This document shows, piece by piece, positions 8,196-62,405 of a DNA stretch of 64,000 bases (within the stretch, counting starts at the first letter, position 1; each line of letters begins with the position of its first letter). Under the pieces are notes generated by a model, which made no database searches, was not told the DNA's origin, and was given only the letters and a program-made list of their open reading frames with translations. The DNA is from Heterodontus francisci (taxonomy: Eukaryota). The translations under genes were made by a program, and so were the position numbers. The stretch is from the NCBI RefSeq assembly GCF_036365525.1, contig NC_090382.1:67111099-67175098 (forward strand). Direction: 5' to 3'.

Positions 8196-8199
8196 TCCA

Positions 8200-24587: not shown

Positions 24588-26850
24588 ATGAAAGAGTTGT
24601 CTAAAACAGGCTGGGAAGATAGACTAAGGGGAAGGTTAGTGGATGAGCAGTGGCAGACATTTAAGCAGATATTTCATAACGTTCAGCAAAAATTTATCCC
24701 GGTCAAAAAGAAGGACTCGATGAGAAAGCTGCACCACCCTTGGTTAACAAAGGCAGTCAAGGAGAGTATCCAATCAAAAACTAAGGCATACAAAGTGACA
24801 AAAACTAGTGGTAGGCCAGAGGATTGGGAATTTTTTTTTTAGGACTAAAAAGCTAATAGAGAGAAAATTGATGATCGTAAATTGGCAAGAAATATAAAAA
24901 CAAACAGCAAGAGCTTCTACAAGTATATAAAAAGAGAGCAGCTAAAGTGAGCGTGGGACCCTTGGAGGATGCGACTGGAGAATTGATAACCAGGAACAGG
25001 GAAATAGATAATTTAAACCAATATTTTGCATCGGTCTTCACGATGGAGGGCAGTATAACCATCCCACAGATATCAGGTAAGCATGGAGCTAATGGGAGGA
25101 AAGATCTTGTAACAGTCTCTATCACAAGGGACAAAGTATTTGACAAACTGATGGGACTAAAGGCAGACAGGTCGCCAGGACCTGATGGCCTACATCCAAG
25201 GGTTTTAAAGGAAGTGGCTGCAGAGATAGCAGAGGCATTGGTCGAAATATTCCAGAACTCACTGGATTCTGGGAGGGTCCCAGCGGATTGGAAAACTGCT
25301 AATGTAACGCCCCTGTTCAAGAAGGGAGGGAGACAAAAAGCAGGAAGCTATAAGCCAGTCAGCCTAGCATTGGTCATTGGAAAAATGCTAGAGTCCATTA
25401 TTAAGGAAGAAATAGCAGGACATTTAGAAAAGCATAACGCAATCAAACAGTCAACATAGTTTTGTGAAAGGGAAATCATGTTTGACAAATTTGCTCGAGT
25501 TCTTTGAGGATATAACAAGCAGAGTTGATACAGGGGAACCAGTAGATGTCGTGTATTTGGATTTCCAGAAGGCATTCAATAAGATGCCACATAAAAGATT
25601 ATTGCACAAGAAAGGAGCTCACGGTATTGGGGGTAATGTATTAGCATGGATTGAGGATTGGTTAACTCACAGAAGACAGAGTCGGGCCTAATGGGTCTTT
25701 TTCAGGTTGGAAAGACGTAACTAGTGGAGTGCCACAAGGATCAGTCCTAGGGCCTCAATTATTTACTCTCTATATTAATGACTTGGAGGAGGGGGCAGAG
25801 TGTAATATATCCAAATTTGCTGACAATACAAAAATAGGTAGGAGGGCATGTGATGAAGACATAAGGAATCTTCAAGGGGCTATAGATAGGTTGAGTGAGT
25901 GGGCAAAAACTTGGCAGATGCAATTTAATGTAGGAAAGTGTGAGGTCATGCACTTTGGTAGGAAGATGCAGACGGCAGACTATTTAAATGGAGAGACTCC
26001 AAAAAAGTGCAGCACTGGGATCTGGGTGTTCTTGTGCATGAAACACAAAAAGTTAGCATGCAGGTGCAGCAAGTAATTAAGAAGGCAAATGGAATTTTGG
26101 CCTTTATTGCTAGGGGGTTGGAATTTAAAAATAGGGAAGTCTTGTTACAACTGTAGGGTGTTGGTGAGGCCACACCTGGAGTACTGTGTACAGGTTTGGT
26201 CCCTGTGTTTAAGAAAGGATATACTGGCATTGGAGGCAGTTCAAAAGAGATTCACTAGGCTGATTCCTGGGATGAAGGAACAAAAACAAGAAATGCTGGA
26301 ATCACTGAGCAGGTCTGGTGAGTGATTCCAGCATTTCTTGTTTTTGTTTCAGATTTCCAGCATCCGCAGTATTTTACTTTTATCCTGGGATGAAGGATTT
26401 GACTTATCAAGAATGGCTAAACAGGTTAGGCCTTTATTCATTAGAGTTTAGAAGAATGAGGGGTGACCTTATTGAAACGTACAAGATTCTGAGGGGGCTT
26501 GACAGGATAAATGTTGTGAAGATGCTTCCACTAGTGGGGGAATTTCAAACTAGGGGACATAGTTACAGGGTAAGGGGACACTCATTTAAAACTGAGATGC
26601 AAAGGAATTTCTTCTGAGGGTAGTGAATGTCTGTAATTCTCTAACCCAGAGAGTTGTGGAGGCTAGATCACTGAAAGTATTTAAAGAGGAGGTAGATAGA
26701 GTTTTGAATATCGGGGAGTTGAGGGCGATGAGGAGCTGGCACGAAAGAGGAGTTGAGGTGTGGAGCAGATCAGCCATGATCTTATTGAATGGCGGGGCAG
26801 GCTTGAGGGGCCGAATGGCCTACTCTTATTTCTTATTTCCTTTATGTTCA
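24588..26850 (+). mobile_element. CR1 LINE ORF2 (frameshifted) plus 3' UTR
   Basis: SPGPDGLHPRVLKE, NVTPLFKKGG, YLDFQKAF, PQGSVLGP, KFADNTK, GDLIETYKILRG. Confidence 0.93.
26280..26382 (+). mobile_element. Miniature inverted Penelope-like insertion with 15-bp TSD
   Basis: Inverted repeat acaaaaacaagaaatgctggaatcact / agtgattccagcatttcttgtttttgt plus tail; same sequence family as 59068-59150; TSD tcctgggatgaagga at 26265-26279 and 26383-26397. Confidence 0.85.
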
Positions 26851-27970
26851 TTCTTTCTCCCTCATGTGTTTATCCAGCTTCCCCTTAAATGCATCTATGT
26901 TAGTCACCTCAAGTACTCCTTTGTGGTAGTGAGTTACACATTATAAACACTTGCTGGATAAAGACATTTCTTTTGAATTCCCTATCGGATTTATTAGTGA
27001 CTATCTTATATTTATGACCCCTAGTTCCGGCCTCCCCCACTAGTGGAAACATCTCTATGTCTATCAAACACTTAATAATCTTGAAGACCTCTATCAGGTC
27101 GCCCCTCAGTCTTTTTTCTAGAGAATCATTCAATCTTTCCTGATGGGTATAACCTCTCAGTTCTGGTATCATTCTAGTAATTTTTTTTTTTGCTCCTCCT
27201 GTGCCTCTATATCCTTTTTATAATATGGAGAGCAGAACTGTTTACTCTAAGTGTGGTCTAACCAAGGTTCTATGTGAATTTAGTATCACTTCTTCACTTT
27301 TCAATTCTATCCCTCCAGAAATGAACCCCGGTGCTTTTTCTAAATGACCTTGTTAACCTGCATCACTGCTTTTACTGATTTGTGTATCTATGCCCCCAGA
27401 TCCCTCTGCTTCTCTAAACAATATAGTTTCTTATTTTTGAAGGAGTATGTGGTCTCCTTATTCTTCCTACCAAAATCCAAAACCTCACACCATTTATATT
27501 GAAGTTCATTTGCTAATTACATGCCCATTCTGCAAGTTTATAAATGTTTACCTGTATTTTGTAACCACCTGCCTCTCTATTAACTACACCCTCTCCCCAC
27601 TCCCACCCCACCCAAATTTCGGGGTCATCTGTAAATTTTGAAATTGTACTTTCGATTCCTGAGTCCAAAACCTTTATGTAAATGGTTAATAATAGTGGTC
27701 CCAGCACCACTTCCCATCTTTTTCCATCTGAGTAACTACTGTTAATCCGCTATTCTCTGTTTTCTGCTTTGTAGCTAGCTTGCTATCCATTCTGGTACTT
27801 GTCCCTAGACACCACATGTTCTGACCTTAGTCATGAGTCTACTTTATGAAGTAACAAGGAATTGAAATGATTATTGTTTTTGTACACATTTAAACATTTG
27901 TATACAGTGATTTATCACACAGATTTTAGTAAAATATATTGGTGGCAGAAAAATGTTTTCTACTAGGTCT

Positions 27971-28890
27971 TGTTACGACTGGGTGAGAAAGGTGTCTTGG
28001 GGTCCTTTTTAGTCTTCACCTGGTGGTCTTGTAACAGGATTTAATTTTTAAACACTGTGTTTTGACCTCCCCCTTGGTGAATCCTTGTTCACCACTTTCC
28101 AATTATAAGGCAAAGAATTGAGCATAAACAGGCTTTCTTAGGTTTAAAGAAGAAAAGTGAAATTTATTAAGCCTTAAACTTGAACTCTAATTCGGTTAAC
28201 GTCTACGGATACATGCTGCGCCCCACACTAGCATGCATATACGATACGCACATGCAAATAGAGACAGAAAAGAGAAGGAAGAAAATAAAGTAGAGAGGTT
28301 TGAGGCAATATCAGAAGAGTTATTTGTTTACTGTGCTTCGATCTCGGTAGTCCTATTGGTAAGTAGTCTTGCTTTTCATTGGGGCCCAATATTCTTCTTA
28401 AACCTTGTTCACTGTAGGAGACTTTTCTCTCTTGGGGTTCATGTGTCTTCAATGGGTCTTCAGTTCCGTGAGAAAGAGATGAGAGCAGACAGGAGACAGA
28501 TGTTCTCTGTCCGGGAGCAAAGAACTTTGAGTTCAAATGCCTTGTGGCAAGTTCAAATTCAAAAAAACTCCAACAGTCATGTGACTAAACTGGTCTGACC
28601 ACATCTGTTTGTGTATTCGGCCATCTTAGCAGTTAATCTGAAATGCTAGCCTCTCCCCCTCCAACGTCTGGTAATCAAAAGTTCATTGTGGATTAAATTG
28701 GAGCAGGGAATGGCCCCTTTGTCCGTCACAAGTACTGTCTGTTACTATGCAAAAACGGTCTTTCTGGCGAGGGGCCTGGCAATTCTTTGTGTTAGGCCCT
28801 CTTTTCTTTCCAGCAGCAATTTTAAGTTTTAATGTTCATGTGGCGAAATAATGTGTGCCTCATTCTTGGCAGTTGGGGGCCTGCATGACA
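27971..28890 (-). mobile_element. Solo LTR (920 bp), Gypsy/ERV-type
   Basis: TGTTA...TGACA termini; perfect 4-bp TSD gtct on both sides; AATAAA on minus at 28163-28168. Confidence 0.85.
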
Positions 28891-29415
28891 GTCTTTTTAA
28901 AATGGAGGGAGAAAACCTCTGAGTGCAAATCTAAATTTTACCCTTCTGAACATATTGTGCCTGAAGGGAGCTATAAAATACCAGAGTGAAATCATGTTGA
29001 TGTTGGGAGCAGTTTCAGGTGATGAGTTAACTTTTGGCTCATGTGATTTTTTTTTTGTTTAAATCTATAGTGTGTTGGTTGTAGCATGTTAAATAAGCCT
29101 AGTGATAAAGGTGCTACAATCTAGTACATTTTTCTGCTGAGGAAGGAGTTGTTGTCAAGGAAACTGCTGTGCATGAATTCTATTTCTTCAGTCTCAATTC
29201 TCTGTTCGCTATTTTTCTCTCCTAACTTTAGGAGTGTAGTGGTGGAGGAAGATAGAGAAAGAAGGAAAGAACCCAATATGGCCATGATGTATGTCAGTAG
29301 TTATCTAGGCAGTACAATCCAGCAGAGTGGACTCCCTTAGCTCCCAGTGGTGTGCGACAGCAAAAAAAAAACCCTTAATCATTTCAGCTCCTTGTTACTA
29401 TTTACTAGTTTACTC

Positions 29416-29775
29416 CATAAAGTAGACTCGTGACTAAGGTCAGGACATGTGGAGTCGAGGGACAAGTAGCAGAGTGGATAGCAAGCTGGCTACAAAACAG
29501 AAAACGGGGGGTTAACAGTAGTTAGTCAGATGCAAAAAGGTGGGAAGTGGTGCTGGGACCACTATTATTAACCATTTACGGAAAAGATTTGGACTCGGGG
29601 AAACGGAAGTTCAATTTCAAAATTTACAGATGACCCTGGATTTTGGGAGGAGAGGGTGTAGTCAGTACAGAGGCAGTTGATTACAAAATACAGAAAAACA
29701 TTAATAAACTTGAACGGGCATGTAATTGGCAAATGAACTTCAATACGCAAAAGAAGTTTGTGCACTTTTTGGAAG
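29416..29775 (+). mobile_element. CR1 fragment, inverted relative to 27490-27848
   Basis: cataaagtagactcgtgactaaggtcagg matches the reverse complement of 27820-27848; VLGPLLL and KFTDD remnants. Confidence 0.75.
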
Positions 29776-30172
29776 AGGGATCTCATTTCCTATGCACCCA
29801 TTTCCCCCCACACCAACCCCGCCAAATTTTCTCCTTTCCTAAAAGTGGTTTGTCTTCCTGGCATGGTAGCAGCTAGGTCTCGGGCACTTCATTAAAGTAG
29901 CCATTCTCCAATATATGACCTGGACAGTGATTGTCAGTATGATGTTCTTCACGGCCAATCTGTCAGCAGTTTAGCTTCAATGTTAAGGCAGCAAATTGCT
30001 GAAATTAAACATCAAACACTTCAATCAGAAGACGATGGAGGATGGGAGCATCCAAAGAACAAAGAGGTCCACACAACAAAATCTTTTTAATGTTTCATTT
30101 TGTTTATTGCCCAAATCTTAGAATGATAACACCAAAGATGGAGTGGCTTCCCTGTAATTATACAATAAAATA

Positions 30173-31425
30173 CATTTTTGAGAGATTAAAGAGAGTTCAC
30201 CACATAGATGTCTTAGAAACTTGTTATACTATACCCATAAATCCACAATTATTCATTCCAGTTGGCAATAGCACTTGTTAGGTAATACTATATTTGAGCA
30301 ATGCAATATATGACAGATTGATTAGAGTCAGGGATAGGGCTGCCAGGCAGACAAAGTTCAAGTTTCAAGGCCGGAAAACAATATACATTTGAGGACTAAC
30401 GTATTAAAAGAAAAATGATCGATTGGAGTATTTGGACACCAATTAATCAGTTCATGAATTACAGATGGAAGCCAGAATGTGACAAAGTTGTCATGTGTAA
30501 TTGCTATAGATTGCAGAGTGACTTTCATTTTATAAACTGGTGGATCAAAAACCATCATAGTCTAAAGTGTATATGTACCAGATGTAATGCATTTTCAAAT
30601 AAATGTGTAAGTTTGGTATTTGAAAAGGGCAATGTGAATTTTAGCTGTTGAAGTGTTTGAAATATATCTGGTGATTCACAAGGCAGTTAGAAAGAAGATG
30701 GTTAGTGCAGAATATGATAATCTGCACACTTGCATATTTGGCTGTTGAAAGCTATGAACCATCTTTAAGCAAGTTTGCATCTATTGCTTACAGAACTAGG
30801 ATTGTTGCATTTGTTGGGTTAGCTCCTTTGGTGGTAATCAAATAATTAGTCGGAGGGTTTCATTCTTCAAGAATTCTTCCCTAGTAGACAAAATTTAATT
30901 GCAGCAATTCTCAAACATGTGTTAAACACAATTTAGATGACACATCCATTGAATTAGAGGGCTTGGATTCAGGTTAAAAATGCATGGGCAAGTGAAACAA
31001 TATCTGAAAGTGTTAATTGTATTGGTTGGGAATTGAGTTTTGACAGCATTTGAATGATCACAAGAGCACAAACGTTTGACCGATGGAGTCTGGAAACTGT
31101 TGCCAAGCAGGAGCACTGGAAATGAGGCAAAAGTACCAAGAGAAGTGTATACCAAAAAGATGTTTGTGATTGGGGCTTTAGCCCTTAAACTGCATTTTGT
31201 GTAGAAGTTGTATATTGTGTTTTCTGGCCTTGAAACTTAAACATTGTCTGCCTGGCACCCCTATCCCTGACTCTAATCAAGCTGTCATATATTGTATTGC
31301 TTGACTATGGTATTACCTAACAAGTGCTATTGCCAATTGGAACGAATAAATGTGGATTTATTGGTATGGTATAACAAGTTTCTAAGACAGCTATGTGGTG
31401 AATTCTCTTTAATCTCTCAAAAATG
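30173..31425. mobile_element. Non-autonomous DNA transposon with ~215-bp TIRs and TA TSD (Tc1/mariner/pogo-like)
   Basis: TA|CATTTTTGAGAGATTAAAGAG ... CTCTTTAATCTCTCAAAAATG|TA; arms 30173-~30390 and ~31210-31425 are diverged reverse complements. Confidence 0.8.
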
Positions 31426-32089
31426 TAAGCAATGCATACATTTGTGGATTAATACTATGAAAGGGTCTCTTCTTAAAGTTCTGAAAGGTCAAAGCTTTCA
31501 ATTCCTTTCATGAACCTCAACAACCCCATGTACAAAGAGGTGAAGGATTTCAATGGCCACTAAATCAAACTTAGTGTAACTAGGTTCAAGGCTTTGTTTA
31601 AACAATTGTTGGAAATAAAGACAGACCTTTTACGTGTCTGACTGTAAAGTGATTGCAGGCTAGAAGACAGATTTTCTTAATAAGAGTACATCCACTACAA
31701 GATTGGAAGACTTTTATTTACCAGTCTGTTCCAATTTGGGTACATCGGTTGCACACTGAGTTAGTGGCGATTTTGAGCTGCTGAGTAATACTTCAAAATG
31801 TTCATATTGTTTTTAGATTAGCAAAAGCAGTGCATCAGCCAGTTATTTTATTTTACATGCTGTAAGTGCACATTAGGCTGATCATCTGAAAGAAAAATAT
31901 AAAACATTAGGTTAAACGTGACGTTTTATAAGAATTTAACTTACATGTATTTCTACATATTTTGTGCTTAATTTTAACTTATTGAAAGCATTGCAACATA
32001 ATTTAAGTGATCCGTAATCATTTTGTTGCTGGTAATTCATATATAAAGTATTGAATTGGTATGAATACAGCAATCTAGATCAGCATTTC

Positions 32090-32310
32090 AAAGTGTACCA
32101 AATAAAATAAGACAGGTGTAAACTTAAACCCGATCAGGAACAATTTCTCTACTTAGTGAGTATTTGCAATAATCTACCAACCAATGTAATAAAAGCAAAA
32201 ACTTTTTGGTTATTCAAGATGCAATTAAATGCTGTGATGGGAGTTAATGGAATTTAGAGGTGAGCCTCAAGGGACTGAATAGTCTATTCTCATCCCTGAC
32301 ATTGCCTATA
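32090..32310 (+). mobile_element. Old CR1 3' remnant
   Basis: atcaggaacaatttctctacttagtgagt...ttcaagatgcaattaaatg...gggactgaatagtctattc resembles a CR1 3' end. Confidence 0.5.
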
Positions 32311-33649
32311 TTGTATTCAAGAGCTAAATTATCTGTGGAAGTTAACTGCTAGGAACTGTGACAAGTTCAAGCATTGTTCTACAACAGTGAACCCAGCTTG
32401 TGGGGAAGTAATAGAAGTCTGAGATGTTAGCTGTAATTGATATTAGTATTAAGCTTTTATGGAGTCAATAGTGCTTCACTTGGAGATTTTCAAAGAATTA
32501 CCAGAATGCAGGGGCACGGAGGGAATAGTTTCTTGAGTGCAAGACTGAGAAGTATTTGCCAAAGTTGTAATTGCAAACTTGTCAGATTTGAAGAAATGCA
32601 GTTCTGTTTGATTCAGGTATAACTTGCTATTCTATACCTATATAAAATGTAATCTGAATGAGGATCTGGATCCATTCTTTATTCTGGAATATAATTTCCC
32701 TTTTTGAGAGTTGAATGCAAAAGTAGTAGATGTTAGTAATAGCCCTGTTTAGAATTTGAACTCATTTCCTTTACAATATATAAAGGAGAAAGTGAGAATC
32801 CTTACACTTGAAAGTCAAGAAAAGTCACTTTAAGCAGTTGCTTACTATTAACTAAAGTGATGACTTTTGTTGACTTTCGGTTATAAAGATTCTCAGTTGC
32901 TGCTTAATATATTGTAAAGAAAATCAGGCAATGAAACTAAAACAGATTTCTTAAATAAAGATGAAACTCTGGTGTCTAACATGCAACATGCTAAAACATG
33001 ATCAACCGAATGTTGTAGTTTCAGTGGCTGATATCCTGTGCGGTGCTTAATTATTTTTAATTTATAGATTTTATGTTTATGAAAAATTGATGAATCTTGA
33101 GGCCTTTCAAGGTTGTCTAACTTCATCAACCATTTGAGATTATCATTTTGGATGCTGAAAAGGATGCAGAATGGGTCAGTAGTGACTCATCAGTTTGAGA
33201 ACTACAAAATGTGATTAGTACAATCTTTGTCTTAGCCAATTATAAACTGTTTCTCTATTTTCAAATTGATCTTAAATGAACTGTTCCTTTTAAAGTAAGG
33301 ATGCTCTAACAGTCTTGCTAGTATTTTACATTGAGTTCTCATACTTTCAAAAAAAGTTGAAGATCTTTCTTGTAATTGGAATAGAAACTGGGAAAGATGT
33401 AGCTCATGGGAACTAAAAAGAGGCAGCAACTTGAAAAAAGGTTAGGTTTAGGCCCACAGCTCTATTGATACCTTGTGTGGATTGCTTTGACCCAGATCGA
33501 AATACCTCTTTGACCCTAAAGTTAATACATTTTCCTCAGTGGATTTTTCCAACTTTAGAGTTAATCACCCTTTGGAGCCACTTCTGGGATGTTTTTCTAT
33601 TTTTGGTGTGTGTTTTTAAATAAATGTTACCAATATTTTGTTTTTGTGT

Positions 33650-35230: not shown

Positions 35231-35244
35231 GAATTGTCTTTGAA

Positions 35245-38111: not shown

Positions 38112-38290
38112 ACAAGTTCATTTAAACCACGTTCATATTAAGAAGCAAGATTGTAGGTTGTATTTAGAGGTTTCTGGCTATGAACTACTGAAGAGAAAAC
38201 GTTTATCTACCGAATCTTGAAATGACAAGCTTAACGCGATATACAAGTTGTTTTTCACGCAGTTGAAACTTTTTTCAGTGGACGCTTTTG

Positions 38291-42725: not shown

Positions 42726-44614
42726 TTTATTGTTGAATGCCCATTTTAGATTGGTTTAGTATGGTCAGATTGTTTCAAACTCTAATGGGTATATCTATAG
42801 CTTCTAATTCAATTACAGTTTTATCAATAGTGAATTTTAGAAGAAATGTATATTTTAATCTCTAACTATATGTTGAATAATGTTTCATCATGTGATCAGG
42901 ATTTCTAGCGAGCCTTAAAATACTTCAAGGGAAACTGATATCAAACTTGAGCTCTGATTTTATTTTAATATTTTTAAAACAATAATACATCACTAGACTA
43001 TGAAAAAAATTGATCATCTGCAGTAGAGGTACTGCAGTTGATTATATATGTGCAAAATCAGAACTTTTTAGAGCTTTAAAAAGATTAGTGAATGTGAAAA
43101 ACTAGTTGAATGCCATTTCTTTAAAAGAAATACAGATGAGGTCTGATTTTATGTTATAGTTCCAAAGAGCTGCGTCATTCTTTGTATTTAAGGCACAGAT
43201 AATAAACTAACTTTTCTGATACTGTACCTATTGTCATAGATCAGCTTTAGTATATTGTATTAATATTGATGTACACCTTTTGAGATTTTTGCAGTCAGGT
43301 ATTGAATGATTCAAATTGAGTGCCTAAAATTTATTTTATACTATAAAATGTTTCTGTTTCTCTTGAATTAAATAACACAATTAGTGCAATTGACAACTAG
43401 CTTGATTTCACAACATTTATTTAGTATGAATGAATTAGCTTTTTAATGTTGAACAAATTCAAGCATCTTATCTAAAAACTTTAACAGATATGTCAGGGCC
43501 TACAATTCTGGATTATTTCTCAAAGCTCAATGTAATCAAATATGATTCATATGCACTTTATTTTATTTGAAAAGGTGTAGTATTCAAGTTGACTTGTGTT
43601 ACTGATTTAATGTGAATTCTGAAAGCACTCAATGCTAGATTGTCTCTTTCTAACTACCTATCAGTATCTTTATTTTTTTTTTAAAGTCCAGCAAACTGCA
43701 TATTTACTAAAGAATTGGTTTGGAAATTTGTTTCACTTGATAAGGGGACAGATAATGTGGCACTGAATTTTAGTGCTTGTCAGTTGCAATAGTTAAAATA
43801 AAGATTTAAAGTTCAAAATCTAAGCTAGTTGGCAAGAGCAGTTTATTTTTATCGGTCCATACTCTTGATACGTATCTCCCTACCCATTTCTCTCTCTCTC
43901 AGTACTCCCTCACTGATCCCTGCCACTGGTGTGTAGGGTGCTAACATGCTTTCTTCACATGCAGATGGACTTGGCAATCCTACGCCCAATCTCTTCACTG
44001 CTTGAGTAGTCTTTCCTACCCCTCACTGCATATTTACTTTTGCTCCCTCTCTTGTCCTTCCTCATATAGCAACATTGCATTTTTGTTATGACACATAATT
44101 ACTAGGGTAATTTTGCTTGAAACAAGTGTGAAAATTTTAACTAAAAGATTGGTGAGAACTTTTCAGGATGATCCACATTCATTGAGACTTAATTTTCCCC
44201 TGAATATGACTGAAAAATCGACCTCCTCCTTTATTTTGAGGTTAATCCATCTCTGAACTCTTATGTCAAATTTCCCTTCCTTTTCATTTTCATCTCTGAC
44301 CACTCTTACTCTAGTCAGCACTGCTTAAAACAATCACTCCATCTGTTTCCAAATTTGGGAATCATCCCTTTTGCCTGTACTTTAGGAGGGGAAGTTCGCA
44401 GCTAATATTATGCTTGTCTTGCTGCCTGTTCTTGTAGCCACATAGTTAGCCAGGCATAACAGGATCTAGTCTCAATTTCAGATCACAATTACACCCTGTA
44501 GCCCTCAGCTGACTAACTGCAGGATTCAGCACAATTGACAAGTACTGAAACAGCTATGATTTAAATATTCGTTTGGTGGCACAGAACTTGAGTATTACTA
44601 AAAACAGAGACATT

Positions 44615-44650
44615 TTGTCGAAGCTTTTCGTCTTTCACTCATCAGGATAA
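44615..44650 (-). ncRNA. Minimal type I hammerhead ribozyme motif
   Basis: Minus strand TTATC-CTGATGA-GTGAAAGAC-GAAA-AGCT-TC-GACAA: canonical CUGAUGA and GAAA boxes, palindromic stem III, UUC cleavage triplet. Confidence 0.7.
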
Positions 44651-45098
44651 TTTGCAAGAATACCAATGTAAGGATACAACAAATTTATACTATGAGAAGA
44701 GAGTGCTGATTGGTTGACAAGTGAACTCTGGTGGAGGCGTTGCCATGGAGAATGCACCAGTTTCTGGTGACTGACAATTAACCACCAAGCTTTGTTTGAA
44801 ATTTAAACCAGGCAGTTTGATTCCCTTTCTTTAGGAAGAACATGTACACACGTTGCGCCTGTTTCAGCTAAACAAAATAAGTGACAGCCATTTGCTGGTT
44901 CATTCCTCTGGGCAATGTTTTGACCAATGAGAGTAAAACTGCCTGGTTTAAATTTCAAACAAAGCTTGGCAGTTAACTGTCAGTCATGATAAACTGGTGC
45001 ATTCTCCATGGCAACGCCTCTACCACTCAGAGTCCATTTGTTAACTAATCAGCACACTCATAAGGTTGTTGCTTCTCTTACATTGGTATTCTTGTGAA

Positions 45099-45134
45099 TT
45101 GTCTTGATGAGTGCAAGATGAAAAGCTTCAACAA
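45099..45134 (+). ncRNA. Degenerate hammerhead motif (partner arm)
   Basis: TTGTC-TTGATGA-GTGCAAGAT-GAAA-AGCT-TC-AACAA; C3>U and CpG-type decay. Confidence 0.55.
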
Positions 45135-45642
45135 AATATCTCTGTTTTCAGCAATACTCAAGCTATGATTTAGTTAATGATATTTACTGATCGGGGTGGG
45201 GGGTGGTGGAAAAGCAAAGTTATCTACTTCGGGTATGAATCTGACCGTAATGACTAGATGGTTAGTCTGACTATCCTTGGTACATGGACCCAGAAAAATG
45301 CCTTAGAGTGTAAATGTAAACTCAGTTTTGTAATATTTTGGATCTTTATACTATGCAGGGCACAAGTCAAATTTCATTTTTATTAAATTACATTAAGATT
45401 TTTACTGGTGCTTGCTGATTGAATTCTGGGCATTATTCTGTGAAAACCATAAATGTGGATCCTGCGTTTTAATTTTCCTTTATGTATTTAATTTTTATCC
45501 CTTACTACTTTTAAGGCTGAGAATACACAGAAAGATGATACACAATATGCACAGTTTGCAGGCAGACATTGGACATTTAGAAACACTGGATAAAGGGAAT
45601 TTTGTTTAACTGTATTTGGAGAGCAGTCCTGCACTTAATTCG

Positions 45643-45835
45643 AGACACAAAATGCTAGAAACAGGTCAGGGTTGCTGTGCAGAAAGCAAAAAAAAAATAA
45701 CATTTCAAGTCTAAACCTGAATCACTAACCTAAACTGTTTCAATTCTCCACTGATGCTGCGTGATCTGGTGAGTGTTTTCAGCATTTTCATTTTTTATTT
45801 CAGATTTCCAGCATCTATGCAGTATTTTGCTTTCT
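45643..45835 (+). mobile_element. Old degenerate inverted Penelope-like end fragment
   Basis: cagcattttcattttttatttcagatttccagcatctatgcagtattttgcttt matches the tail of 26280/59068; a short inverted remnant precedes it. Confidence 0.6.
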
Positions 45836-46305
45836 GCACTTTGAGGGCATAGGGAATGTGTTGGGCTTTGGTAACATTAGGAAATGGTCTGGTGTTCTAC
45901 ACAACTTGGATGGAGTAATAAAGTGGGGCTGCTGGTGTTGGCAATTGTGGAGGTGGGGAGGTTGGTCTGGCATCACTGTGTAAGGAGAACCTATGTTTGG
46001 AAGAACTGTTGAAGGCAAACCTGAGTTTTGGCACATCTAGGAATGGAATATGAGGCTTGACTGGTATCTGTCAGCAATGATGGGAGGGGGAAAGGTATGG
46101 GCCTGACAACACTGATTAGATGTCATGCACAGCAACACTATTTTGAATATATTAGGGGATTGCTGCAAACATTAATTGTGGTATTATGGTTTTTTTCACA
46201 TGCTTCTCTCTCTGTCTTTCTCTCTCATTCCTTCAATGTCTGTCTGTTTCCAGCACCTGTAAGAAAATGTAAATATTCAAATCACAAACAATGCAAATTC
46301 AGTGA

Positions 46306-50300: not shown

Positions 50301-51029
50301 ACTATATCATAGATTGAAGCAACTACATTTTTTTAAATTAATGTGCAAGAGGTAAGGCCAAAACCAAACTATCTGCTTTAAGTAAACAGACGTAACTAGC
50401 TAATCTACCAAACTGAGAAATACAATAACTAATGGAAACCAAATTATAGTTTAGTGTTGAAGGCAAATCAGAAAATAAATTTTTAAAACTACTATAATAT
50501 AAACAAATAAATAGAGTGATAATGGCTGCACAGGGGTGTGTCAGGACTGCAGAAATTGGGAATTTGTGAACAGTGGGACTGTCCCAGATGAACACACAGG
50601 AAATTTCTGTCTCTTGATTCACTTTGGGTCAGAGGCATTGGGCTGGAGCACAAGTTAGAGACACTGCCACACATAAGTGGGGCTGGGGGCTGGGGGGTGG
50701 TGGTGGAGGTGGTGATGGAGAAATAGCTGGATAGCTGCAGAACACCATCACACCACATAGAGAGGGACAGGAAGAGAAGTGTGTGACTGACAGTCGGGCA
50801 ATGAGAACCTAGCGGAGACAGAGAAGGAAGAACTGCAGAAATTGTTCCAGTCCAACATGTATAATATACATACTACCTCTGGGAATAAGGATGAAAGCTG
50901 TGGGGAGGATGACAAGGGTGCTAACTAGTGCACTTTGGAGCAGAAGGCAGTCCGGGGGTGGAGGGAGCTGCAGAAAGGAAATAATTAGGGGATATTTTCT
51001 TAATGGTGAGAGTCTGGAAATGGTTTAGA

Positions 51030-52935: not shown

Positions 52936-52991
52936 GGGGTTTATCACAGACACTGTCAATATGCATAAGTTGGGACCATTCAGTGTCACGA

Positions 52992-53525
52992 GGCTGGATT
53001 TTATGATGGTTGGCGGGGACCCATCCACTGGCTGAAAAGTCGGTGGCAATCCCACCTCCACCAGGCCTGGGGATCCAGACTGGATTTTACAATCCCCAGG
53101 CCCTTAATTGGTCTAGGGTGGGACTTCCACCTCATTGAGGCAGGAAGTCCTGCCTAATGGAGCTGCTGGCCAGTCAGCTCAGGGTGCCCGATCAGGAAGG
53201 CCCCCCAGAATGCCGCCTGACTTCAGGTGGGTTTTCTGAGGCCTCAGTCACCGCCAGCCAAATGTAAAATACCTGTGGCGGAGGGTGGAGGCTCTTAAGT
53301 GGAAGACAATTGGCCACTTAAGGACCTTGATTGGCCTGGGGCGGGTCATTTCTCGCTGCCCTACATAAATTGCCAGTGGAGGCAGGAGTGGGTTGGGAAG
53401 GGGCCCCCAGCCTCCCACTCCATTTTACAACCCCATGCCCATCCCCACTGCCCACACCACCCCACCCCCCCCCCCCCCCCCCCCCACCACCAGCCCACTC
53501 TTTTGGGGGGCGTAAAAATCTGGCC
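52992..53525. mobile_element. GC-rich MITE-like element with short TIRs
   Basis: ggctggattttatg ... cgtaaaaatctggcc termini; internal inverted pieces (ccttaattgg / ccaattgg-like). Confidence 0.55.
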
Positions 53526-55214
53526 ACTAAATTTGAAAAATGCCCTCCTGAGAGTTAATTGTCAGTGTATACTTTTTTTTAAAAAAAATGCATGTTAGGT
53601 TCTACAGATATTTTAGTAAAATGTGTAAACTATTGGAAATCAAACCAAAAAGTAATTTAATCTTGGCCCCCATTGTCAAGTACTTCAGAACCAGTTCAAT
53701 CTCATTCATGCTCCAACCTTCTATCAATCTGCAAGAGCCTTCGCCATCCAAAAAATGCCATTTTTCCTTTTCTCAATCTAATGGCCTAAATCTCGATGCA
53801 GCATTTAGTGCTAGATTTACTGTCAACAATATCCAGCATGTCTAATGTAAGAAATGCCTTGTGTGGGGTTAATGTAAGTGCAACCTCAGTCCAGTAAGGT
53901 GAAAAGATAGATGCATGTTTGCATATTCCAGTAGCTCTATCTGTTTCTGTCAGTATATTGTAAGGATATACACCAGACGTCTTCAAGATACCCACTTAAA
54001 ATAAAGGACAGTAGTTGGATTTTTACAGCACAGCCCAAAAATGAATCTGTTAAAAGGCATAATCCATTACTTCACATACGGATTATCTTGACTTGAAATT
54101 AATTTTCTTAAGGACAATATAAGTATCCTCAGCTCAAAAGCATAAAAAAAAATTGTTATTCATGTGTGGAAATACTGTCTCTGTGTCCTTTGAATTGCTT
54201 GAAGATGCTGTTTATTCAAGTTACTTAGGATTAGCTTGAAATAAAAATTGTCAAACTCATTCTTAAAGCTATGTATAGGATTGCCAACCCTCCCAGATTG
54301 CCCAGGAGTATCATACTGGAATTCATGCTTTAAGTTTCTCACCGCAGCAATGTCTACTCCCTCTCCATTCTCACTCCGTGACACCACCAACTCCCTCCAC
54401 AGAGAAACCTGGCTTGGTAACACAACCCATAGTTCCCACCCCCACCCCAACTTGGCAGCTGCAGAGCCAGAAACAGTTGGGAGTCGGCCCTGGTTTGCAG
54501 GGGTTGCTTTGGAGTGAAGGAGGTACAGAAACAATAGTCAAGAAAAGGGAGACTGAGGCTGAAGGGATTGAGGAGAGTGAGGGAAATTCTGGAATGGTAG
54601 TCAGAAATGAAGGTTCAGGGGAAAGAAGGAGACTGTGAATGGGGGCTCCGGGTGAGGAGACTGAGGGTCGGAGGATTTGGGGCTCAGTCAGTGGGGGAGA
54701 GAGCAGGATTGGATAATGGGATGGATGTGATCAATGTTACCTTTAATTATTCTTTGTTTGCAGCCTATTATTTGCACTGTGCAGTCCCTTTAAGATTGCT
54801 GTGAAGTCACACACATGTGCATCTCAACGCGAACATTGGTTGTGCACAACCTGTTTGTTGCACTACATAGCATGTTCCTGATGGCTGCTCATATGCACAG
54901 CTCATAAGGAACATTGGACGTGGGGATCAGTATTTTCTGAAGAGGTGAGAACAACAGCTGCCACAGCAGAAGCAGTGCTAAGAGAGGAGCAGCCAGTAAA
55001 GGAATGAGTGAAACCTGGGGTCTTTACTGTGAGTGCATGGAGACAAGTAGATGTGGACAGTGGATTTTCACTGGAAGAACCAAGGAAGGAGAAGGAAGAT
55101 TCTTGAACTGAAGACTGTTCTACCATGGAATACTTCATCATAAGTGACCATTAAGGTATTGACTAGAATATTGTTTAAAACAATGTGATGTGTTTGAAAA
55201 GGATGAATATAAAG

Positions 55215-55935
55215 TTTTTTATTCTTTCGTGGGATGTAAGCATCGCTGGCAAGGCCAGCATTTCTTGCCCATCCCGAGTTGCCCTTGAGAGGTGGTGGTG
55301 AGCTGCCTTCTTGAACCACTGCAGTTTGTGTGGAGTAGGTACAACCCACAGTGCTGTTAGGGAGTTCCAGGTTTTTGATCCAGTAAGAGTGAAGGAACGG
55401 CGATACAAATCTAGGGATGATGTGTGACGGAGGGGAGCTTGCAGGTGGTAGTGTTCCCATACATCTGCTGCCTTTGTCCTTCTAGGTGGTAGAGGTCGCA
55501 GGTTTGGAAGGTGCTGTTGAAGGAGGCTAGGCAAGTTGCTGCAGTGCATCTTGCATGTGGTACACACTGCTGCCACTGTGCATCAATGTTGGAGGAAGTG
55601 AATGTTTAAGGTGGTGGATGGGGTACCAATCAAGCGGGCTGATTCGTCCTCAATGGTGTCGAGCTTCTTGAGTATTGGAACTACACTCATGCAGGCAAGT
55701 GACGAGTACTCCATCAGACTCCTGACTTGTGCCTTGTAGATGGTGGGCAAGCTTTGGAGAGTCAGGAGGTGGTTTACTTGCCTCAGAATTCCCAGCCTCT
55801 GCTCTTGTAGCCACATTATTCATATGGCTGGTCCAGTTAAGTTTCTGGTCAATGGTAACCCCCAGGATGTTGGTGGGAGAATTCATCGATGATAATGCTG
55901 TTGAATGTCAAGGGGAGATTGTTGGATTCTCTTTC
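55215..55935 (-). mobile_element. LINE 3' fragment, same family as 7485-8195
   Basis: ILGVTIDQKLNWTSH; TIYKAQVRSLMEYSSLACMS...LKKLDTIEDESARLIG. Confidence 0.85.
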
Positions 55936-56279
55936 TGGGGGAAATGGGATTATAGGAGCAAGCACAAGCCTCAGGGCCTAAATGACATTTCCAGTGCTGC
56001 AATTTCTAGGTTTCTACGAAAACACTGAGTCTGAGCGGAGGGGATGGTTTCGAAATGTTGGTGCTGAGCTAGGTGTAGGGTGGTATGCCCTGTGAGAAGT
56101 GCCCCAAACACACTCCTTTGTGTGATCTCTCATTTTGCATCAGGTCAGTTTGTGCGACAGGGAATCTGAGTGTTACTTATGAGTGTAATTTCATTAGTTA
56201 TATTTGGAATTAGTTCTTCCCACCTCTGGTTTCCCCTCTGCAAATCACTCCTACACCTTTTGGTTTCCCTTCATCTCCA

Positions 56280-56399
56280 CTCTGTTTCCTGTCTTTGCCT
56301 GCGCGCGGGGGACCTGGTTCTCGGAACTTCTCGTATTAACAGTTGCTGACGCGACCACAAGCAAAGACAGTGAACTATAGGAGACCCAACCTTTATAAG
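56280..56399 (+). promoter_or_regulatory. CpG-rich promoter and candidate non-coding exon 1 of a downstream gene
   Basis: gcgcgcgggg, cggaac; donor AAG|GTAAAT at 56399/56400; E-box GTCACGTGAT at 56423-56432; CpG enrichment continues to ~58080. Confidence 0.45.
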
Positions 56400-58106
56400 G
56401 TAAATGCATAATTTTTGCAGATGTCACGTGATCCAGTCATGTAAGAGCGTCGTCTTCCAGCCAGTGTTAACAATCCTAGCCACGCAAGAAAGCATTACTT
56501 TGATGTGATCCTCTTTCACGACGACATACTCTTAAATTGCTCTTGCCCTCTTTTGCATTTTCCTGCAAAATATATTTAAGGACGTATGCAGTTTTCAAGT
56601 CTTAATTTTTGATCCTTTTACAATTCGTCTTTTTTTCATTAGAGAACGGCCACAGGACAAACCGACCACACACAATGCATTTTTGTTTATTATCAAATTC
56701 ATAAGAGATGCTCATTGATTGGATCACGGTAATATCCTCTGAAATGTCATTGTCGTATCTGTATTGAGCAACCCGGAATATCCTGGAAGTAAATTGCCAG
56801 ATGACGATTTCTTTTTCTATCTGTAACCCAGAGGTTCCTTCTGCAACAACGACATAATGCTCCTCCAAAATGAAAATTAGACCAAGGTTAGGATTTTAAA
56901 AAGAGCTTCAAACCTTTCTGGCATATGGAAACAAATGTAAAAAGTGCGGACGAATGTGGTGATTTGCGCAAATGCCCAATATAGTGTAGGTAGATTAAAA
57001 TTCTGTTTGACAGATAAATCCAATATTAAAGGAATTCTGGAAACCTTTCAGCACACTGGTGCTTTAAACAGAAATCATCATTTCACTGAGAATGTTGACC
57101 AGTGATACTGGAATGTGGATGGTTGGAGTTTCGGAACCATTAAATCATGCCAATTATCAGCGATCACAAACTTGTCCCGTCCTGCGGGGAGCAATATTCC
57201 CCATTATCTAATGAGTTTTCTTTACAATTGAATATCCTACAATGTGACGATCGAACCTGCCCTCCGCTGTGGGGCAATCCCCGACGAGTTGAATTCACAT
57301 TATCATTTTTCTATGCTATTTATTTTCTGTCCATTTTGAATCTCTGTTTCTCGCTAGACTCCATCTTGTGGATTTTTTTTTTTTGTTATTCACTCCGTGC
57401 TGCAGCAGTGAGCGCTCACGCCATGAGCGGAGCCTCGTTACTTGCCAGCCGGGGCGCAGCGACCTCAGCCCGTGGATCCCTGCAGCTCTCGCTTCTGAAG
57501 TGCAACTCAAGTCTCAGGCTATCAGAGACTGGAACACACACCATTTCAGATTAACGGATAAACAGGAGGGAAAGACACGCATTTTTTATTCTGGTTTAAT
57601 TGTATTTTTTAACCTTGTTGATCCAAAACAGGCTGCTGTTAATATGCAGTTGATTTTGTTTTGTAACTTTCAGTTTAGACAAAATCGGTTCTTCTCTTAC
57701 ATCTGTCCCATTAATAATTTTGACAATACAATAACTTGTAATCTTCTAGGAAAATTCTTAGGGGATAACTATTTCAACAATCCAATGCAGCCCAAATCAA
57801 TGGCAGATAATGCACCATTCGCCGAATTGTCAGCCTGTCTATTCATTCAGAGGCATTTATTGAAATCAGTACTGGAAATGTAGAGTAACTAGTTGCACAT
57901 AATGTGGCAAGGGGTAGTTGAAGAGACAAAGAAGGATGAAATGCCGCAAAATAAAAAGACAACTAATACAAATGCAACGTAAAGCAAAACATTAACGGGA
58001 AGTAAAAGGGGTAATAAATGTGGGGGAGGGGTGGCATAGATAAGAGGGTTCTGAGTAGCTGCGCCGTGGACGTTTATCTCATTGGTTTTTTAAAAAAGGG
58101 GTTGGG

Positions 58107-58878
58107 AACAAAGAAGCAGGAGTAGGCCATTCAGCCCATCGAGCCTGGTTCTACACTCCCCAACCAGGGGAAACAGCTTGCCTGCATCTACCCTGTCTAT
58201 CCCTTTTAAGTACTTTGTAGGTTTCAATGAGATCACCTCTCATTCGTTGAAACTCTAGAGAATACAGGCCCAGTTTCACCAATCTCTGTTCATAGGACAG
58301 CCCCACCATCCCGGGAACAAGTCTGGTGAGCTTTTGTTGCACTCCCTCTCTGGCAATAATATCCTTCCTAAGGTAAGAGGACCAAAACTGCACACACTAC
58401 TCCAGGTGCAATCTAACCGAGGTTCTATACAATTGAAGCAACACTTCACTACTCCTGTAAGCAAATCCTCTTGCGATAAAGGCTAACATACCATTAGCCT
58501 TCCTAATTGCTTGCTGCACCTGCATGTTAGCTTTCAGGGTCTTATTGACGAGGACACCCAGGTTCCTTTGTACATCTACATTCTCTAATCTCTTGCCATT
58601 TAAGAAATACTCTGCACATCTGTTCCTCCAACCTCACATCACCTTTCCACATCATATTCCATCTGCCATGTTCTTGCCCAGTCACTAAATCTGTTCAAAT
58701 CCACTTGAAGCCATTTTGCATCTTCCTCACAACACACATTCCCACCTAGATTTGTGTCATCCGCGAACTTGGAAATATTACATTTGGTCCCCACATCCAA
58801 ATCATTGATATATATTGTGAACAGCTGGGGCCCAGTACTGATCCTTGTGGTACCTCACCAGTCACAGCCTGCCAATGC
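58107..58878 (-). mobile_element. CR1 3' portion, same subfamily as 1-2022
   Basis: QFWSSYLRKDIIAREGVQ...GDLIETYK; reverse complement aligns with ~990-1730. Confidence 0.9.
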
Positions 58879-59579
58879 AAGAATGACACGTTTATTTGCC
58901 AATCTATCTTCATAACTGAAATTCCTCATCCCTGGACCCATTCCCGTGAATCTCTTCTGTACTCTCTCCAATGCCCCCATGTCTTTCCTCATGTGCGGCG
59001 CCCAGAATTGGACACAATTCTCCAGTTGAGGCCGAACTAGTGTCTTATACAAGTTCAACATAACTTCTCAAATAAAAGCAAAATACTGCGGATGCTGGAA
59101 ATCTGAAACAAAAACAAGAAATGCTGGATTCACTCAGCAGGTCTGGCAGCATCTGTGGAAAGAGAAGCAGAGTTAACGTTTCGGGTCAGTGACCCTTCTT
59201 CGGAACTGACAAATATTAGAAAAGTCACAGATTATAAACAAGTGAGGTGGGGGTTGGGCAAGAGATAACAAAGGAGAAGGTGCAGATTGGACCTGGCCAC
59301 ATAGCTGACCAAAAGGTCACGGAGCAAAGGCAAACAATATGTTAATGGTGTGTTGAAAGACAAAGCATTAGTACAGATTAGGTGTGAATATACTGAATAA
59401 TGAACATCAGCAAGTGCAAACCTGAAGAAAAACAACCTGAAAAAAACAGTGGGTAAGCAAACTGAACAAACTAAGATGAAATGAAATAAATGCAAAAAAA
59501 GATTGTAAAAAATGTAAAAAGGAATGCAAAAAAAAAAGGAAGAAAAAATGACTAAAAATGAAAGTAAAGTGGGGGGCTG

Positions 59580-60326
59580 TCATGCTCTGAAATTATTGAA
59601 CTCAATGTTCAGTCCGGCAGGCTGTAGTGTGCCTAATCGGTAGATGAGATGCTGTTCCTCGAGCTTGCGTTGATGTTCACTGGAACACTGCAGCAATCCC
59701 AGGACAGAGATGTGAGCATGAGAGCAGGGGGGAGTGTTGAAATGGCAAGCAACCGGAAGCTCAGGGTCCTGCTTGCGGACTGAGCGGAGATGTTCCGCAA
59801 AGCGGTCACCCAGTCTGCGCTTGGTCTCCCCAATGTAGAGGAGACCACACTGTGAGCAGCGAATACAGTATACTACATTGAAAGAAGTACAAGTAAATCG
59901 CTGCTTCACCTGAAAGGAGTGTTTGGGACCTGGGATAGTGAGGAGAGAGGAGGTAAATGGGCAGGTATTACACCTCCTGCGATTGCAAGGGAAGGTGCCC
60001 TGGGACGGGGACGAGGTGGTGGGGGTAATGGAGGAGTGGACCAGGGTGTCGCGGAGGGAACGATCCCTTCGGAATGCTGACAGGGGAAGGGAGGGGAAGA
60101 TGCGACTGGTAGTGGCATCACGCTGGAGGTGGCGAAAATGGCGGAGGATGATCCTTTGGATATGGAGGCTGGTGGGATGAAAAGTGAGGACAAGGGGAAC
60201 CCTGTCACGGTTCTGGGAGGGAGGGGAAGGGGTGAGGGTAGAGGTGCGGGGAATGGGTCGGACACGGTTGAGGGCCCTGTCAACCACAGTGGGGGGAAAT
60301 CCTCGGTTGAGGAAAAAGGAGGTCAT
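59580..60326 (-). CDS. Penelope ORF C-terminal part (RT thumb/linker plus GIY-YIG endonuclease), 5'-truncated
   Basis: RVPLVLTFHP, CNRRRCNTC, NVVYCIRCSQCGLLYIGETKRRLGDRFAEH, PVACHF, LEEQHLI, PAGLN. Confidence 0.9.
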   Translation of the reverse strand: MTSFFLNRGFPPTVVDRALNRVRPIPRTSTLTPSPPSQNRDRVPLVLTFHPTSLHIQRIILRHFRHLQRDATTSRIFPSLPLSAFRRDRSLRDTLVHSSITPTTSSPSQGTFPCNRRRCNTCPFTSSLLTIPGPKHSFQVKQRFTCTSFNVVYCIRCSQCGLLYIGETKRRLGDRFAEHLRSVRKQDPELPVACHFNTPPCSHAHISVLGLLQCSSEHQRKLEEQHLIYRLGTLQPAGLNIEFNNFRA

Positions 60327-60423
60327 ATCAGAAGCACCGTCATGGAAGGTAGCATCATCAGAGCAGATGCGTCGGAGACGGAGAAACTGGGAGAATGGAA
60401 TGGAGTCCTTCCATGACGGTGCT

Positions 60424-61008
60424 CATATCCAAAGGATCATCCTCCGCCATTTTCGCCACCTCCAGCGTGATGCCACTACCAGTCGCATCTTCCCCTCCCT
60501 TCCCCTGTCAGCATTCCGAAGGGATCGTTCCCTCCGCGACACCCTGGTCCACTCCTCCATTACCCCCACCACCTCGTCCCCGTCCCAGGGCACCTTCCCT
60601 TGCAATCGCAGGAGGTATAATACCTGCCCATTTACCTCCTCTCTCCTCACTATCCCAGGCCCCAAACACTCCTTTCAGGTGAAGCAGCGATTTACTTGTA
60701 CTTCTTTCAATGTAGTATACTGTATTCGCTGCTCACAGTGTGGTCTCCTCTACATTGGGGAGACCAAGCGCAGACTGGGTGACCGCTTTGCGGAACATCT
60801 CCGCTCAGTCCGCAAGCAGGACCCTGAGCTTCCGGTTGCTTGCCATTTCAACACTCCCCCCTGCTCTCATGCTCACATCTCTGTCCTGGGATTGCTGCAG
60901 TGTTCCAGTGAACATCAACGCAAGCTCGAGGAACAGCATCTCATCTACCGATTAGGCACACTACAGCCTGCCGGACTGAACATTGAGTTCAATAATTTCA
61001 GAGCATGA
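60424..61008 (+). CDS. Second (inverted) copy of the Penelope GIY-YIG segment; the ORF-track N-terminal extension is antisense of the first copy
   Basis: Same peptide from HIQRIILRHF to the stop, with one C>Y change. Confidence 0.85.
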   Translation, partial: HIQRIILRHFRHLQRDATTSRIFPSLPLSAFRRDRSLRDTLVHSSITPTTSSPSQGTFPCNRRRYNTCPFTSSLLTIPGPKHSFQVKQRFTCTSFNVVYCIRCSQCGLLYIGETKRRLGDRFAEHLRSVRKQDPELPVACHFNTPPCSHAHISVLGLLQCSSEHQRKLEEQHLIYRLGTLQPAGLNIEFNNFRA

Positions 61009-61390
61009 CAGCCCCCCACTTTACTTTCATTTTTAGTCATTTTTAGTTATTTTTTCTTCCTTTTTTTTTTTGCATTCCTTTTTACATTTTTTACAATCTT
61101 TTTTTGCATTTATTTCATTTCATCTTAGTTTGTTCAGTTTGCTTACCCACTGTTTTTTTCAGGTTGTTTTTCTTCAGGTTTGCACTTGCTGATGTTCATT
61201 ATTCAGTATATTCACACCTAATCTGTACTAATGCTTTGTCTTTCAACACACCATTAACATATTGTTTGCCTTTGCTCCGTGACCTTTTGGTCAGCTATGT
61301 GGCCAGGTCCAATCTGCACCTTCTCCTTTGTTATCTCTTGCCCAACCCCCACCTCACTTGTTTATAATCTGTGACTTTTCTAATATTTGT

Positions 61391-61430
61391 CAGTTCCGAA
61401 GAAGGGTCACTGACCCGAAACGTTAACTCT
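61391..61430 (+). ncRNA. Minimal hammerhead-like motif in the Penelope pLTR (mirror copy ~59170-59210, minus)
   Basis: CAGTT-CCGAAGA-A-GGGTCACTGACCC-GAAA-CGTT-AACT: core with U4>C and an extra A, palindromic stem II and AACGTT stem III. Confidence 0.6.
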
Positions 61431-62405
61431 GCTTCTCTTTCCACAGATGCTGCCAGACCTGCTGAGTGAATCCAGCATTTCTTGTTTTTGTTTCAACATA
61501 ACTTCCTTGCTCTTGTACTCGAAATTCCTATTAAAACATACAGTATCCTGGGCTTTATTATTAACTGTTCTCTCAACCTATCCTGCCACCTTTAATAACT
61601 TAAGCACATATACACCTAGGTACCTCTGCTCCTGCACCCCTTTTAGAATTGTATCCTTTATTCTATATTGTCTCTCCATGTTCTTCCTACCAAAATGAAT
61701 CACCTCACATTTTTCTGCATTGAACTTCATCGGCCACCTGTCTGCCCATTCTACCAACTTGTCTATGTCCTTTTGAAGTTCTACACTACCCTCCTCACAG
61801 TTCATAATGCTTCCAAGTTTCGTATCATCTGCAAACTTTGAAATTGTACCCTGGACACCAAGGTCTAGGTCTTTAATATATATCAGGAAAAGCAAGGGTC
61901 CTAACACTGATCCCTGGGAAATTCCACGACAAACCTTCCTCCAGCCCAAAAAACATCCATTAACCACTACTCTTTGTTTCCTGTCACTCAGCCAATTTCA
62001 TTTCCAAGTTGCTACTGTCCCTTTTATTCCATGAGCTACAAGTTTGCTCACAAGTCTGATGTTGGTGCTGTATCAAGTGCCTTTTGAAAGTCCATGTACA
62101 TCACATCAACAGCATTGCCCTCATCAACCCTCTGTTACCTCCTCAAAAAACTCCAGCAAGTTAGTTAAACATGATTTTTCCCTTAAGAAATCCATGCTGG
62201 CTTTCCTTAATTAACCCATATTTGTGACTATTGATTTTGTCCTGAATTTTTTTTTCTAGAAGATTTCCCATCACCAAAGTTAAACTGCCTGGCCTGTAGT
62301 TGCTGGGCTTATCTTTACACCCTTTTTTGAACAAGGGTGTAATGTTTGCAATTCTCCAGTCCCCTGGCACTACCATCAGTCTAAGGAAGACAGAAAAATT
62401 ATGGC

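Follow-up and report, generated by a model that had tools for sequence, protein, structure and literature searches.

Three head-to-head insertions of Penelope-like elements (PLEs) lie in a 64,000-nucleotide stretch of the Heterodontus francisci genome (contig NC_090382.1, positions 67,111,099 to 67,175,098 of the forward strand), referred to here as the window. A reading of the window made from the letters alone (the sequence-only reading) had described each insertion as a target-site duplication (TSD), an arm, an inverted arm and a second TSD, with TSDs of 12-15 bp and an extra terminal tail on one arm only. Both points are confirmed: all three insertions follow the layout TSD, minus-strand arm, plus-strand arm, TSD, with exact repeats of 15, 12 and 14 bp, and the tail is single-sided in each, measuring ~36 nt in one family of elements (family 1) and ~25 nt in another (family 2). 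As a control for chance, 4032 mismatched pairs of flanks were compared, and these had at most 9 bases in common. The insertions had also been taken for one graded series; instead they represent two families, with the smallest and the largest belonging to family 1 and the third to family 2.

Coordinates of family 1 count from +1, an A located 29 nt downstream of a TATAA, which places the ATG at +173; S denotes 3' ends near +100 and L denotes 3' ends near +136. The 103-bp insertion (26280-26382) is flanked by TSDs (given here, as for the other insertions, on the plus strand) at 26265-26279, within a CR1-like host fragment, and at 26383-26397, the first base of which is common to the element end. 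Its short (S) arm (26280-26318, minus strand) covers reference +62 to +100, and its long (L) arm with the tail (26322-26383, plus strand) covers approximately +71 to +136. The 2424-bp insertion (59068-61491) lies between TSDs at 59054-59067 and 61492-61505, with the first four bases of the latter matching the element too. Its long arm (59068-60416, minus strand; ~-1200 to +141) contains a reverse transcriptase (RT) thumb, a CX4CxxC linker, a GIY-YIG domain, the 3' untranslated region, a pseudo-long terminal repeat (pLTR) with a hammerhead-like motif, and the tail, and its short arm (60424-61491, plus strand) runs from -952 to +100. The centre between them (60407-60423, plus strand) is a 17-nt reverse-complement copy of 60333-60349, a short snap-back, followed by a jump to the short arm. 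As the earlier reading had it, the short arms of these two insertions end alike, both at +100/+101, and the TSD starts at reference +101 in both. The family-2 insertion (597 bp, 44564-45160), with TSDs at 44552-44563 and 45161-45172, consists of a long arm carrying the tail and a hammerhead-like motif (44564-44823, minus strand) and a short arm (44833-45160, plus strand) that extends ~94 nt further 5' than the long one.

Family 1 is abundant, with 17,522 matches to an exact 27-mer in the 6.0-Gb genome. Its arms in the 2424-bp insertion encode the RT thumb, linker and GIY-YIG, and a natural copy elsewhere (locus L085), with a tandem unit of 3290 nt and a 14-bp TSD, holds an open frame of 924 amino acids whose C-terminal 278 amino acids are 99% identical to the arm in the window. 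Compared with Pfam, this frame matches RVT_1 (E = 6e-06) and, in addition, GIY-YIG (E = 4e-04), each score falling slightly short of the curated cut-off. The family combines one open reading frame (ORF) joining RT and C-terminal GIY-YIG, as in endonuclease-positive (EN+) PLEs, with tandem or partial-tandem pLTRs, an inverted 5'-truncated copy and a 30-40 bp tail at one end. A CX2-5CxxC linker, in the form CX4CxxC, precedes the GIY-YIG in its translation, and by this linker family 1 is probably a Neptune-type PLE, a placement to be read with the linker's presence in Nematis in mind: the Zn-finger-like linker marks Neptune and Nematis alike (PMC8557442; this and the other papers cited here are drawn on in part). 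Family 2, with 757 genomic matches to an 18-mer as against 81 for a control, has an RT ~25-29% identical to that of family 1, and no intact frame in 28 loci. Since its decayed translations (L164, L167, L183) show GIY-YIG without the upstream linker, as in Penelope/Poseidon, we regard it as probably Poseidon-like. The insertions are dead copies of a known element class, new members of it but ordinary in themselves. Miniature inverted-repeat transposable elements (MITEs) or other non-autonomous DNA transposons were considered and set aside, as the ends are asymmetric, the centres vary by locus and the lengths range from 103 bp to over 6 kb.

To place these insertions among their relatives, we matched the genome by exact patterns, namely the 27-mer and a head-to-head centre pattern. 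The first 100 listed matches to the 27-mer, 75 stretches of contig C1 with 101 core matches, revealed two classes of 3' ends: 53 cores end at +94 to +112 (33 of them at +99 to +101), 45 end at +135 to +145, three read through, and none of the 101 ends at +113 to +134. In tandem copies the sequence of the tail, 36 nt ahead of the ATG, continues into the ORF, and both the S and the L start sites are therefore internal to the RNA. Each also primes alone, as single arms comprise 19 L and 25 S, with flanking repeats of at least 10 bp in 11 and 17 of these, respectively. The check proposed with the sequence-only reading, for scattered arm ends and irreproducible TSDs, thus returned two end classes and reproducible TSDs, and the claim stands. 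Priming from two defined RNA positions is likely, as that reading proposed, and was right in outline, except that the long end is not the true RNA 3' end and that two start sites were already in print (PMC11167929). The 103-bp copy, seen there as a minimal product of the mechanism, is an ordinary 5'-truncated pair, below the shortest in the first sample (126 bp); the usual small product is a pair of 230-250 bp with both arms reaching +1 to +3.

Several observations surround the start sites. A minor class of short arms ends at +36 to +41 (L066, L115, L128, L134, L137, L142 and L152, six of them with good TSDs), at the 3' edge of hammerhead stem I and 3-5 nt beyond the predicted cut; this third start site is without explanation. 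Imperfect copies of one U-rich motif precede both S and L (59068-59130, minus strand; reference +77 to +137), and these copies, for which significance was not tested, are candidate binding sites, one per protomer. In L085, near 6833 (reference +131 to +141), the L site adjoins a pyrimidine tract and an AG, 31 nt ahead of the ATG, an arrangement like that of a splice acceptor. Contigs presumed to derive from RNA showed no intron-like joint at S or L and no site of clustered molecule starts or ends; they were not used as evidence.

The arms of a pair do not combine freely. The centre pattern, which describes head-to-head junctions at the 5' stop and ignores outer ends, has 1,345 matches genome-wide, the first 50 of which were all fetched. 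Picked by their centre alone, these 50 pairs comprise 40 L+S, nine of L with a shorter arm and one of a read-through with a shorter arm, with no L+L and no S+S among them. We then pooled 89 pairs by hand, namely 33 from the first sample, these 50 less four duplicates, eight new ones from 30 loci selected for a G before +1, and the two window copies; left out were a single arm nested in an older copy (L039), an inverted piece without a terminus (L068) and a duplicate (L033, of L032). The pool holds 75 L+S, 12 L with a shorter arm, one read-through with a shorter arm, one S+S and no L+L. Given the 19 L and 25 S single arms, independent choice would yield pairs with exactly one L arm 49% of the time, while 87 of the 89 pairs have exactly one (p ~1e-24). 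These counts describe samples and not genome-wide totals. L039 had been a candidate L+L pair, and was rejected as a single arm inserted in an older copy. Family 2 follows suit, with 11 pairs in 28 loci, nine of which are clearly L+S or L with a shorter arm; the pairing rule holds in what are probably two clades in this genome.

Cut geometry is equally regular. TSDs could be called in 64 of 75 distinct pairs (11 gave no call) and measure 12-17 bp, most often 14 (25 pairs) and then 15 (18 pairs). The breakpoint described earlier as fixed is a cluster and not one base, with the TSD beginning at +98 to +102 in 46 of the 64 pairs. Three bases outside the TSD an A is found in 41/64 cases on the L side and 38/64 on the S side, and a T in 5 and 1 (p = 2e-8 and 1e-6 for A, against an assumed 30%). 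Because both nicks show the same preference, these results suggest a two-fold symmetric nuclease. A match of 1-5 bases between target and RNA occurs at 42/64 junctions per side, a figure that has no shuffle control and is partly built into calling the maximal TSD. Among single arms the repeat reaches 10 bp in 28/44 and never exceeds 15 bp; short repeats would be expected there if the unprimed overhang is trimmed.

The two arms of a pair probably share one source. When 38 of the 50 pairs were aligned without gaps, 35 variants were common to both arms, as compared to a mean of 9.5 and a maximum of 18 in 2000 permutations, and A79T, the commonest subfamily marker, was concordant in 38/38 scored pairs. 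Within 27 simple pairs, the non-L arm extends at least 15 nt further 5' in 11 and the L arm in 3. At three loci (L043, L048, L208) the L arm is the tail only and does not overlap the S arm. In 8/50 centres at most two bases separate the arms, too few to form a hairpin loop. Many centres also carry short templated duplications and GG runs, with GG before +3 in 18/50; these features look like snap-back or polymerase-theta-type end joining combined with untemplated C addition.

We consider it quite likely that head-to-head insertions of EN+ PLEs arise by twin target-primed reverse transcription, with the two cut strands priming cDNA at separate internal sites of the same RNA. An enzyme with two-fold symmetry (probably dimeric) would nick both strands ~14 nt apart and leave 3' overhangs; one RT would begin at S and its partner at L, ~36 nt behind, with both copying toward the RNA 5' end. 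The cDNA 3' ends would then be joined, by a template jump or by host end joining, and each would template the other's second strand. If one end stayed unprimed or lost its cDNA, a single arm of either class would result, often with a shorter TSD. In family 1 many cDNAs would likely run off a capped RNA 5' end at +1, and longer copies would depend on RNA that reads through, or on a jump to its 3' end.

It seems unlikely that the two strands are primed on two RNA molecules, with S occupied by one protomer of an asymmetric complex and L by its partner. Such a scheme would avoid displacing the first cDNA strand, could draw shared variants from one highly transcribed source locus or from cis preference, and would suit minimal hammerheads, which are thought to fold as RNA dimers (PMC4209133). 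However, it needs an extra cause for the strict asymmetry, the marker concordance in every scored pair arose while at least two subfamilies were active, and tail-only L arms that halt near S suggest a collision on one RNA.

Slightly less probable still is fold-back, in which one cDNA started at L snaps back and copies itself as far as S; there the endonuclease or some block would resolve it, and the cDNA would be joined to the target's other end. The scheme derives from the published proposals of self-priming (PMC3846280) and of resolution by the endonuclease (PMC8557442), and it would give one tail per pair, and shared variants, with no second priming; the snap-back at the centre of the 2424-bp insertion and the 5' ends lying at most 55 nt apart in 5/9 long pairs fit it as well. 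Yet fold-back from L cannot yield an S arm longer than the L arm (11/27 pairs), nor non-overlapping arms (three loci), unless deletions followed, and fold-back from S cannot yield the tail. Centres of 0-2 nt are left unexplained, the single S arms with TSDs (17/25) show S to be a start site in its own right, and the snap-back in the window was dropped after 17 nt, with ~180 nt skipped. The data therefore argue against the published self-priming proposal.

An origin after insertion, through a second insertion, recombination between copies or a palindrome assembly error, is very improbable even though family-1 elements are found inserted in copies of themselves (L039, L067) and one S+S pair (L102) may be such a case, since one ~14-bp TSD spans the whole pair in 64 called loci, the arms differ by 1-13% where assembly mirrors would not, and with independent events half of the pairs would be L+L or S+S.

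Several points weigh against twin priming on one RNA. The tendency of the S arm to lead is modest (one-sided p = 0.03), and later central deletions in palindromes could shorten arms. Two transcripts of a single locus, or gene conversion between arms, would also account for the shared variants. The 17-nt snap-back in the window is real, so fold-back synthesis does occur. L102 pairs S with S and has no TSD, and of the remaining family-2 pairs one is probable and one unclear. The anole enzyme in vitro displayed no difference in start site between the strands, in an assay that did not score single molecules at both ends (PMC11167929). Finally, the samples come from contig C1 only and are biased to young copies, and the evidence consists of finished insertions, with no reaction observed.

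At their 5' ends, 39 of 101 family-1 arms start at -3 to +8 and two at +28 to +40, close to the predicted ribozyme cut. Copies that lack the templated C just before +1 have a G there in 3082 cases, a T in 2108 and an A in 1443. Of 30 loci with a G at this position, nine are at inverted centres, and the other 21 comprise eight with a G added at the junction, six explained by the TSD, one substitution and six not assignable. Because a TATAA lies at -29 and +1 stands in what we take to be an initiator-like context, a capped transcription start is the more probable cause of the 5' stop. In Drosophila virilis Penelope, too, transcription starts a short way upstream of the tail (PMC2377424). Against a capped start stand the 6/21 checked single-labelled loci where the TSD accounts for the G, the fact that the hammerhead fold has its 5' edge at +1 as well, and the lack of a 5' pile-up in family 2. 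A general 5' stop in that family was rejected, as its starts are scattered from -42 to -988, and 5' stops at the hammerhead cut were rejected on the 2/101 count.

The hammerhead-like motif itself spans +1 to +37, and its cut is predicted to fall after +33. The motif was identified by eye; its stems I (+1 to +4 with +34 to +37) and II fold, and the palindromic helix III resembles that of the minimal hammerheads in PMC4209133. A search of Rfam gave no hammerhead match at the gathering score, and the fold of +1 to +174 is no better than shuffled sequences (z = -1.21). The core of the young family (61394-61402 and family-wide) has a C at position 4, where we take the hammerhead consensus to have a U.

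Putting these observations together, a joint reading to which we give an even chance would make PLE integration an obligate, asymmetric twin priming. A dimer would cut both strands 14 nt apart, and its two RTs would sit on a single RNA close to its capped 5' end, on repeated motifs spaced by 36 nt, and copy it in tandem, with the cDNAs priming each other's second strand. The tail would then reflect the spacing of the active sites, every insertion would first be a strong-stop DNA like that of retroviruses, and strand transfer or read-through would give rise to pLTRs and tandems.

Much of this anatomy is familiar from other EN+ PLEs. As in Adineta Pen2a, D. virilis Penelope and Naiad, we find direct and inverted pLTRs, head-to-head copies, a 30-40 bp tail at one end, a TSD around the whole unit and partial tandems (PMC3846280, PMC8557442, PMC2377424), with the difference that TSDs in Adineta are 8-10 bp and here ~14. 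Inverted pLTRs with a TSD and a tail on one of them were described together with the self-priming proposal (PMC3846280), and the tail has been ascribed to endonuclease resolution (PMC8557442); in the passages covered, these accounts and PMC2377424 treat the tail as "optional" and give no count of how tails pair. Opposite-strand pairs of hammerhead motifs 100-700 bp apart have also been noted (PMC4209133). A further parallel is PAc, a Poseidon element of Anolis carolinensis (Frangieh et al. 2024, PMC11167929), for which both strands were cleaved and extended in vitro, a dimer was predicted, and two internal start sites bracket the tail downstream of an uncut hammerhead. Family 1 has U-rich start sites that lie upstream of the ATG, whereas those of PAc are in an AC-rich stem inside the ORF, and the portion of that study covered offers no model for inverted insertions, cut stagger or the 5' stop. 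We searched the literature, leaving aside supplementary figures and older papers under subscription, and came upon no statement of the pairing rule or of twin priming in PLEs. New here are the two end classes separated by a gap, the one-L pairing rule, the symmetry of TSDs and nicks, the variants shared between arms and the 5' reach of the S arm.

Twin priming is known from L1, in which both target strands prime cDNA on one RNA and an inversion within one TSD results. In L1 the second primer acts at internal sites that vary, and there is no overlap between the arms. In the PLEs, by contrast, that site is fixed, and one stretch of the RNA is usually copied in both arms, which gives a palindrome. 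The short family-1 units also resemble non-LTR retrozymes and minimal PLE hammerheads, being dispersed, pLTR-derived and equipped with a type I minimal hammerhead-like motif (bioRxiv 10.64898/2026.07.22.740005; PMC4209133). They are not retrozymes, however: they occur singly or head-to-head, with starts at -3 to +8 (39/101) and not at the predicted cut (2/101), and, in place of tandem monomers bounded by the cut site, they begin 33 nt upstream of it. Because of this start, and because they carry both old and new subfamily markers, the short units look like by-products made anew.

Other family-1 loci add variations on these themes. L085 (positions 294-9510; contig C1 near 23.22 Mb) holds ~2.8 perfectly identical 3290-nt units in tandem, with an S end and one 14-bp TSD, which we read as one insertion event that copied the unit repeatedly, from a circular template, by repeated jumps or from a tandem source. 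L103 is a near full-length inverted pair of 6.2 kb with a 15-bp TSD, an L end and a short end near +46. An arm of L100 contains a foreign insert of 130 bp with a 10-bp repeat, and L032 and L033, which lie 280 kb from each other and point in opposite directions, are identical in insertion and flanks, reflecting a segmental duplication.

Elsewhere in the window, the sequence-only reading had listed a decayed fourth pair at 45643. Its right arm (45715-45833, plus strand), an older family-1-related arm with a tail, covering +22 to +133 at ~80% identity, is clear. The possible inverted left arm (45643-45714, minus strand) is weak: its score against the family reference was reached by 4/1000 shuffles and that against its own right arm by 189/1000, and with a repeat of only 8 bp the copy was set aside as a proven pair. 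A perfect 15-bp inverted repeat (45677-45691 and 45826-45840), covering the tail end and some flank of this copy, falls outside what a simple pair model explains. Three further inverted structures were ruled out as PLE pairs, as they match no PLE protein and lack terminal TSDs: 215-bp arms, 91% alike and enclosing 827 bp of AT-rich sequence (30171-31427), probably a non-autonomous DNA transposon; ~360-bp arms, 83% alike and CR1-like by eye, flanking an unrelated insert (27497-29745); and a weak 167-bp palindrome (74%; 32761-32927).

PLEs are the retroelements closest to telomerase. How they complete integration is an open question, with inverted pLTRs and one-sided tails described for two decades, and the sole in vitro study leaves the later integration steps unvalidated (PMC11167929). 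The inverted pLTR, the one-sided tail, the TSD and the two RT start sites were already known; what is added is a genomic pairing rule. Thousands of young copies lead to this rule, of one long and one short start, a symmetric 14-nt stagger and one template, and it gives direct predictions for the existing in vitro system. If true, twin priming would account for this long-known shape, would provide PLEs with a natural route to second-strand synthesis, and would explain many hairpins flanked by TSDs that might otherwise be misfiled as MITEs or retrozymes.

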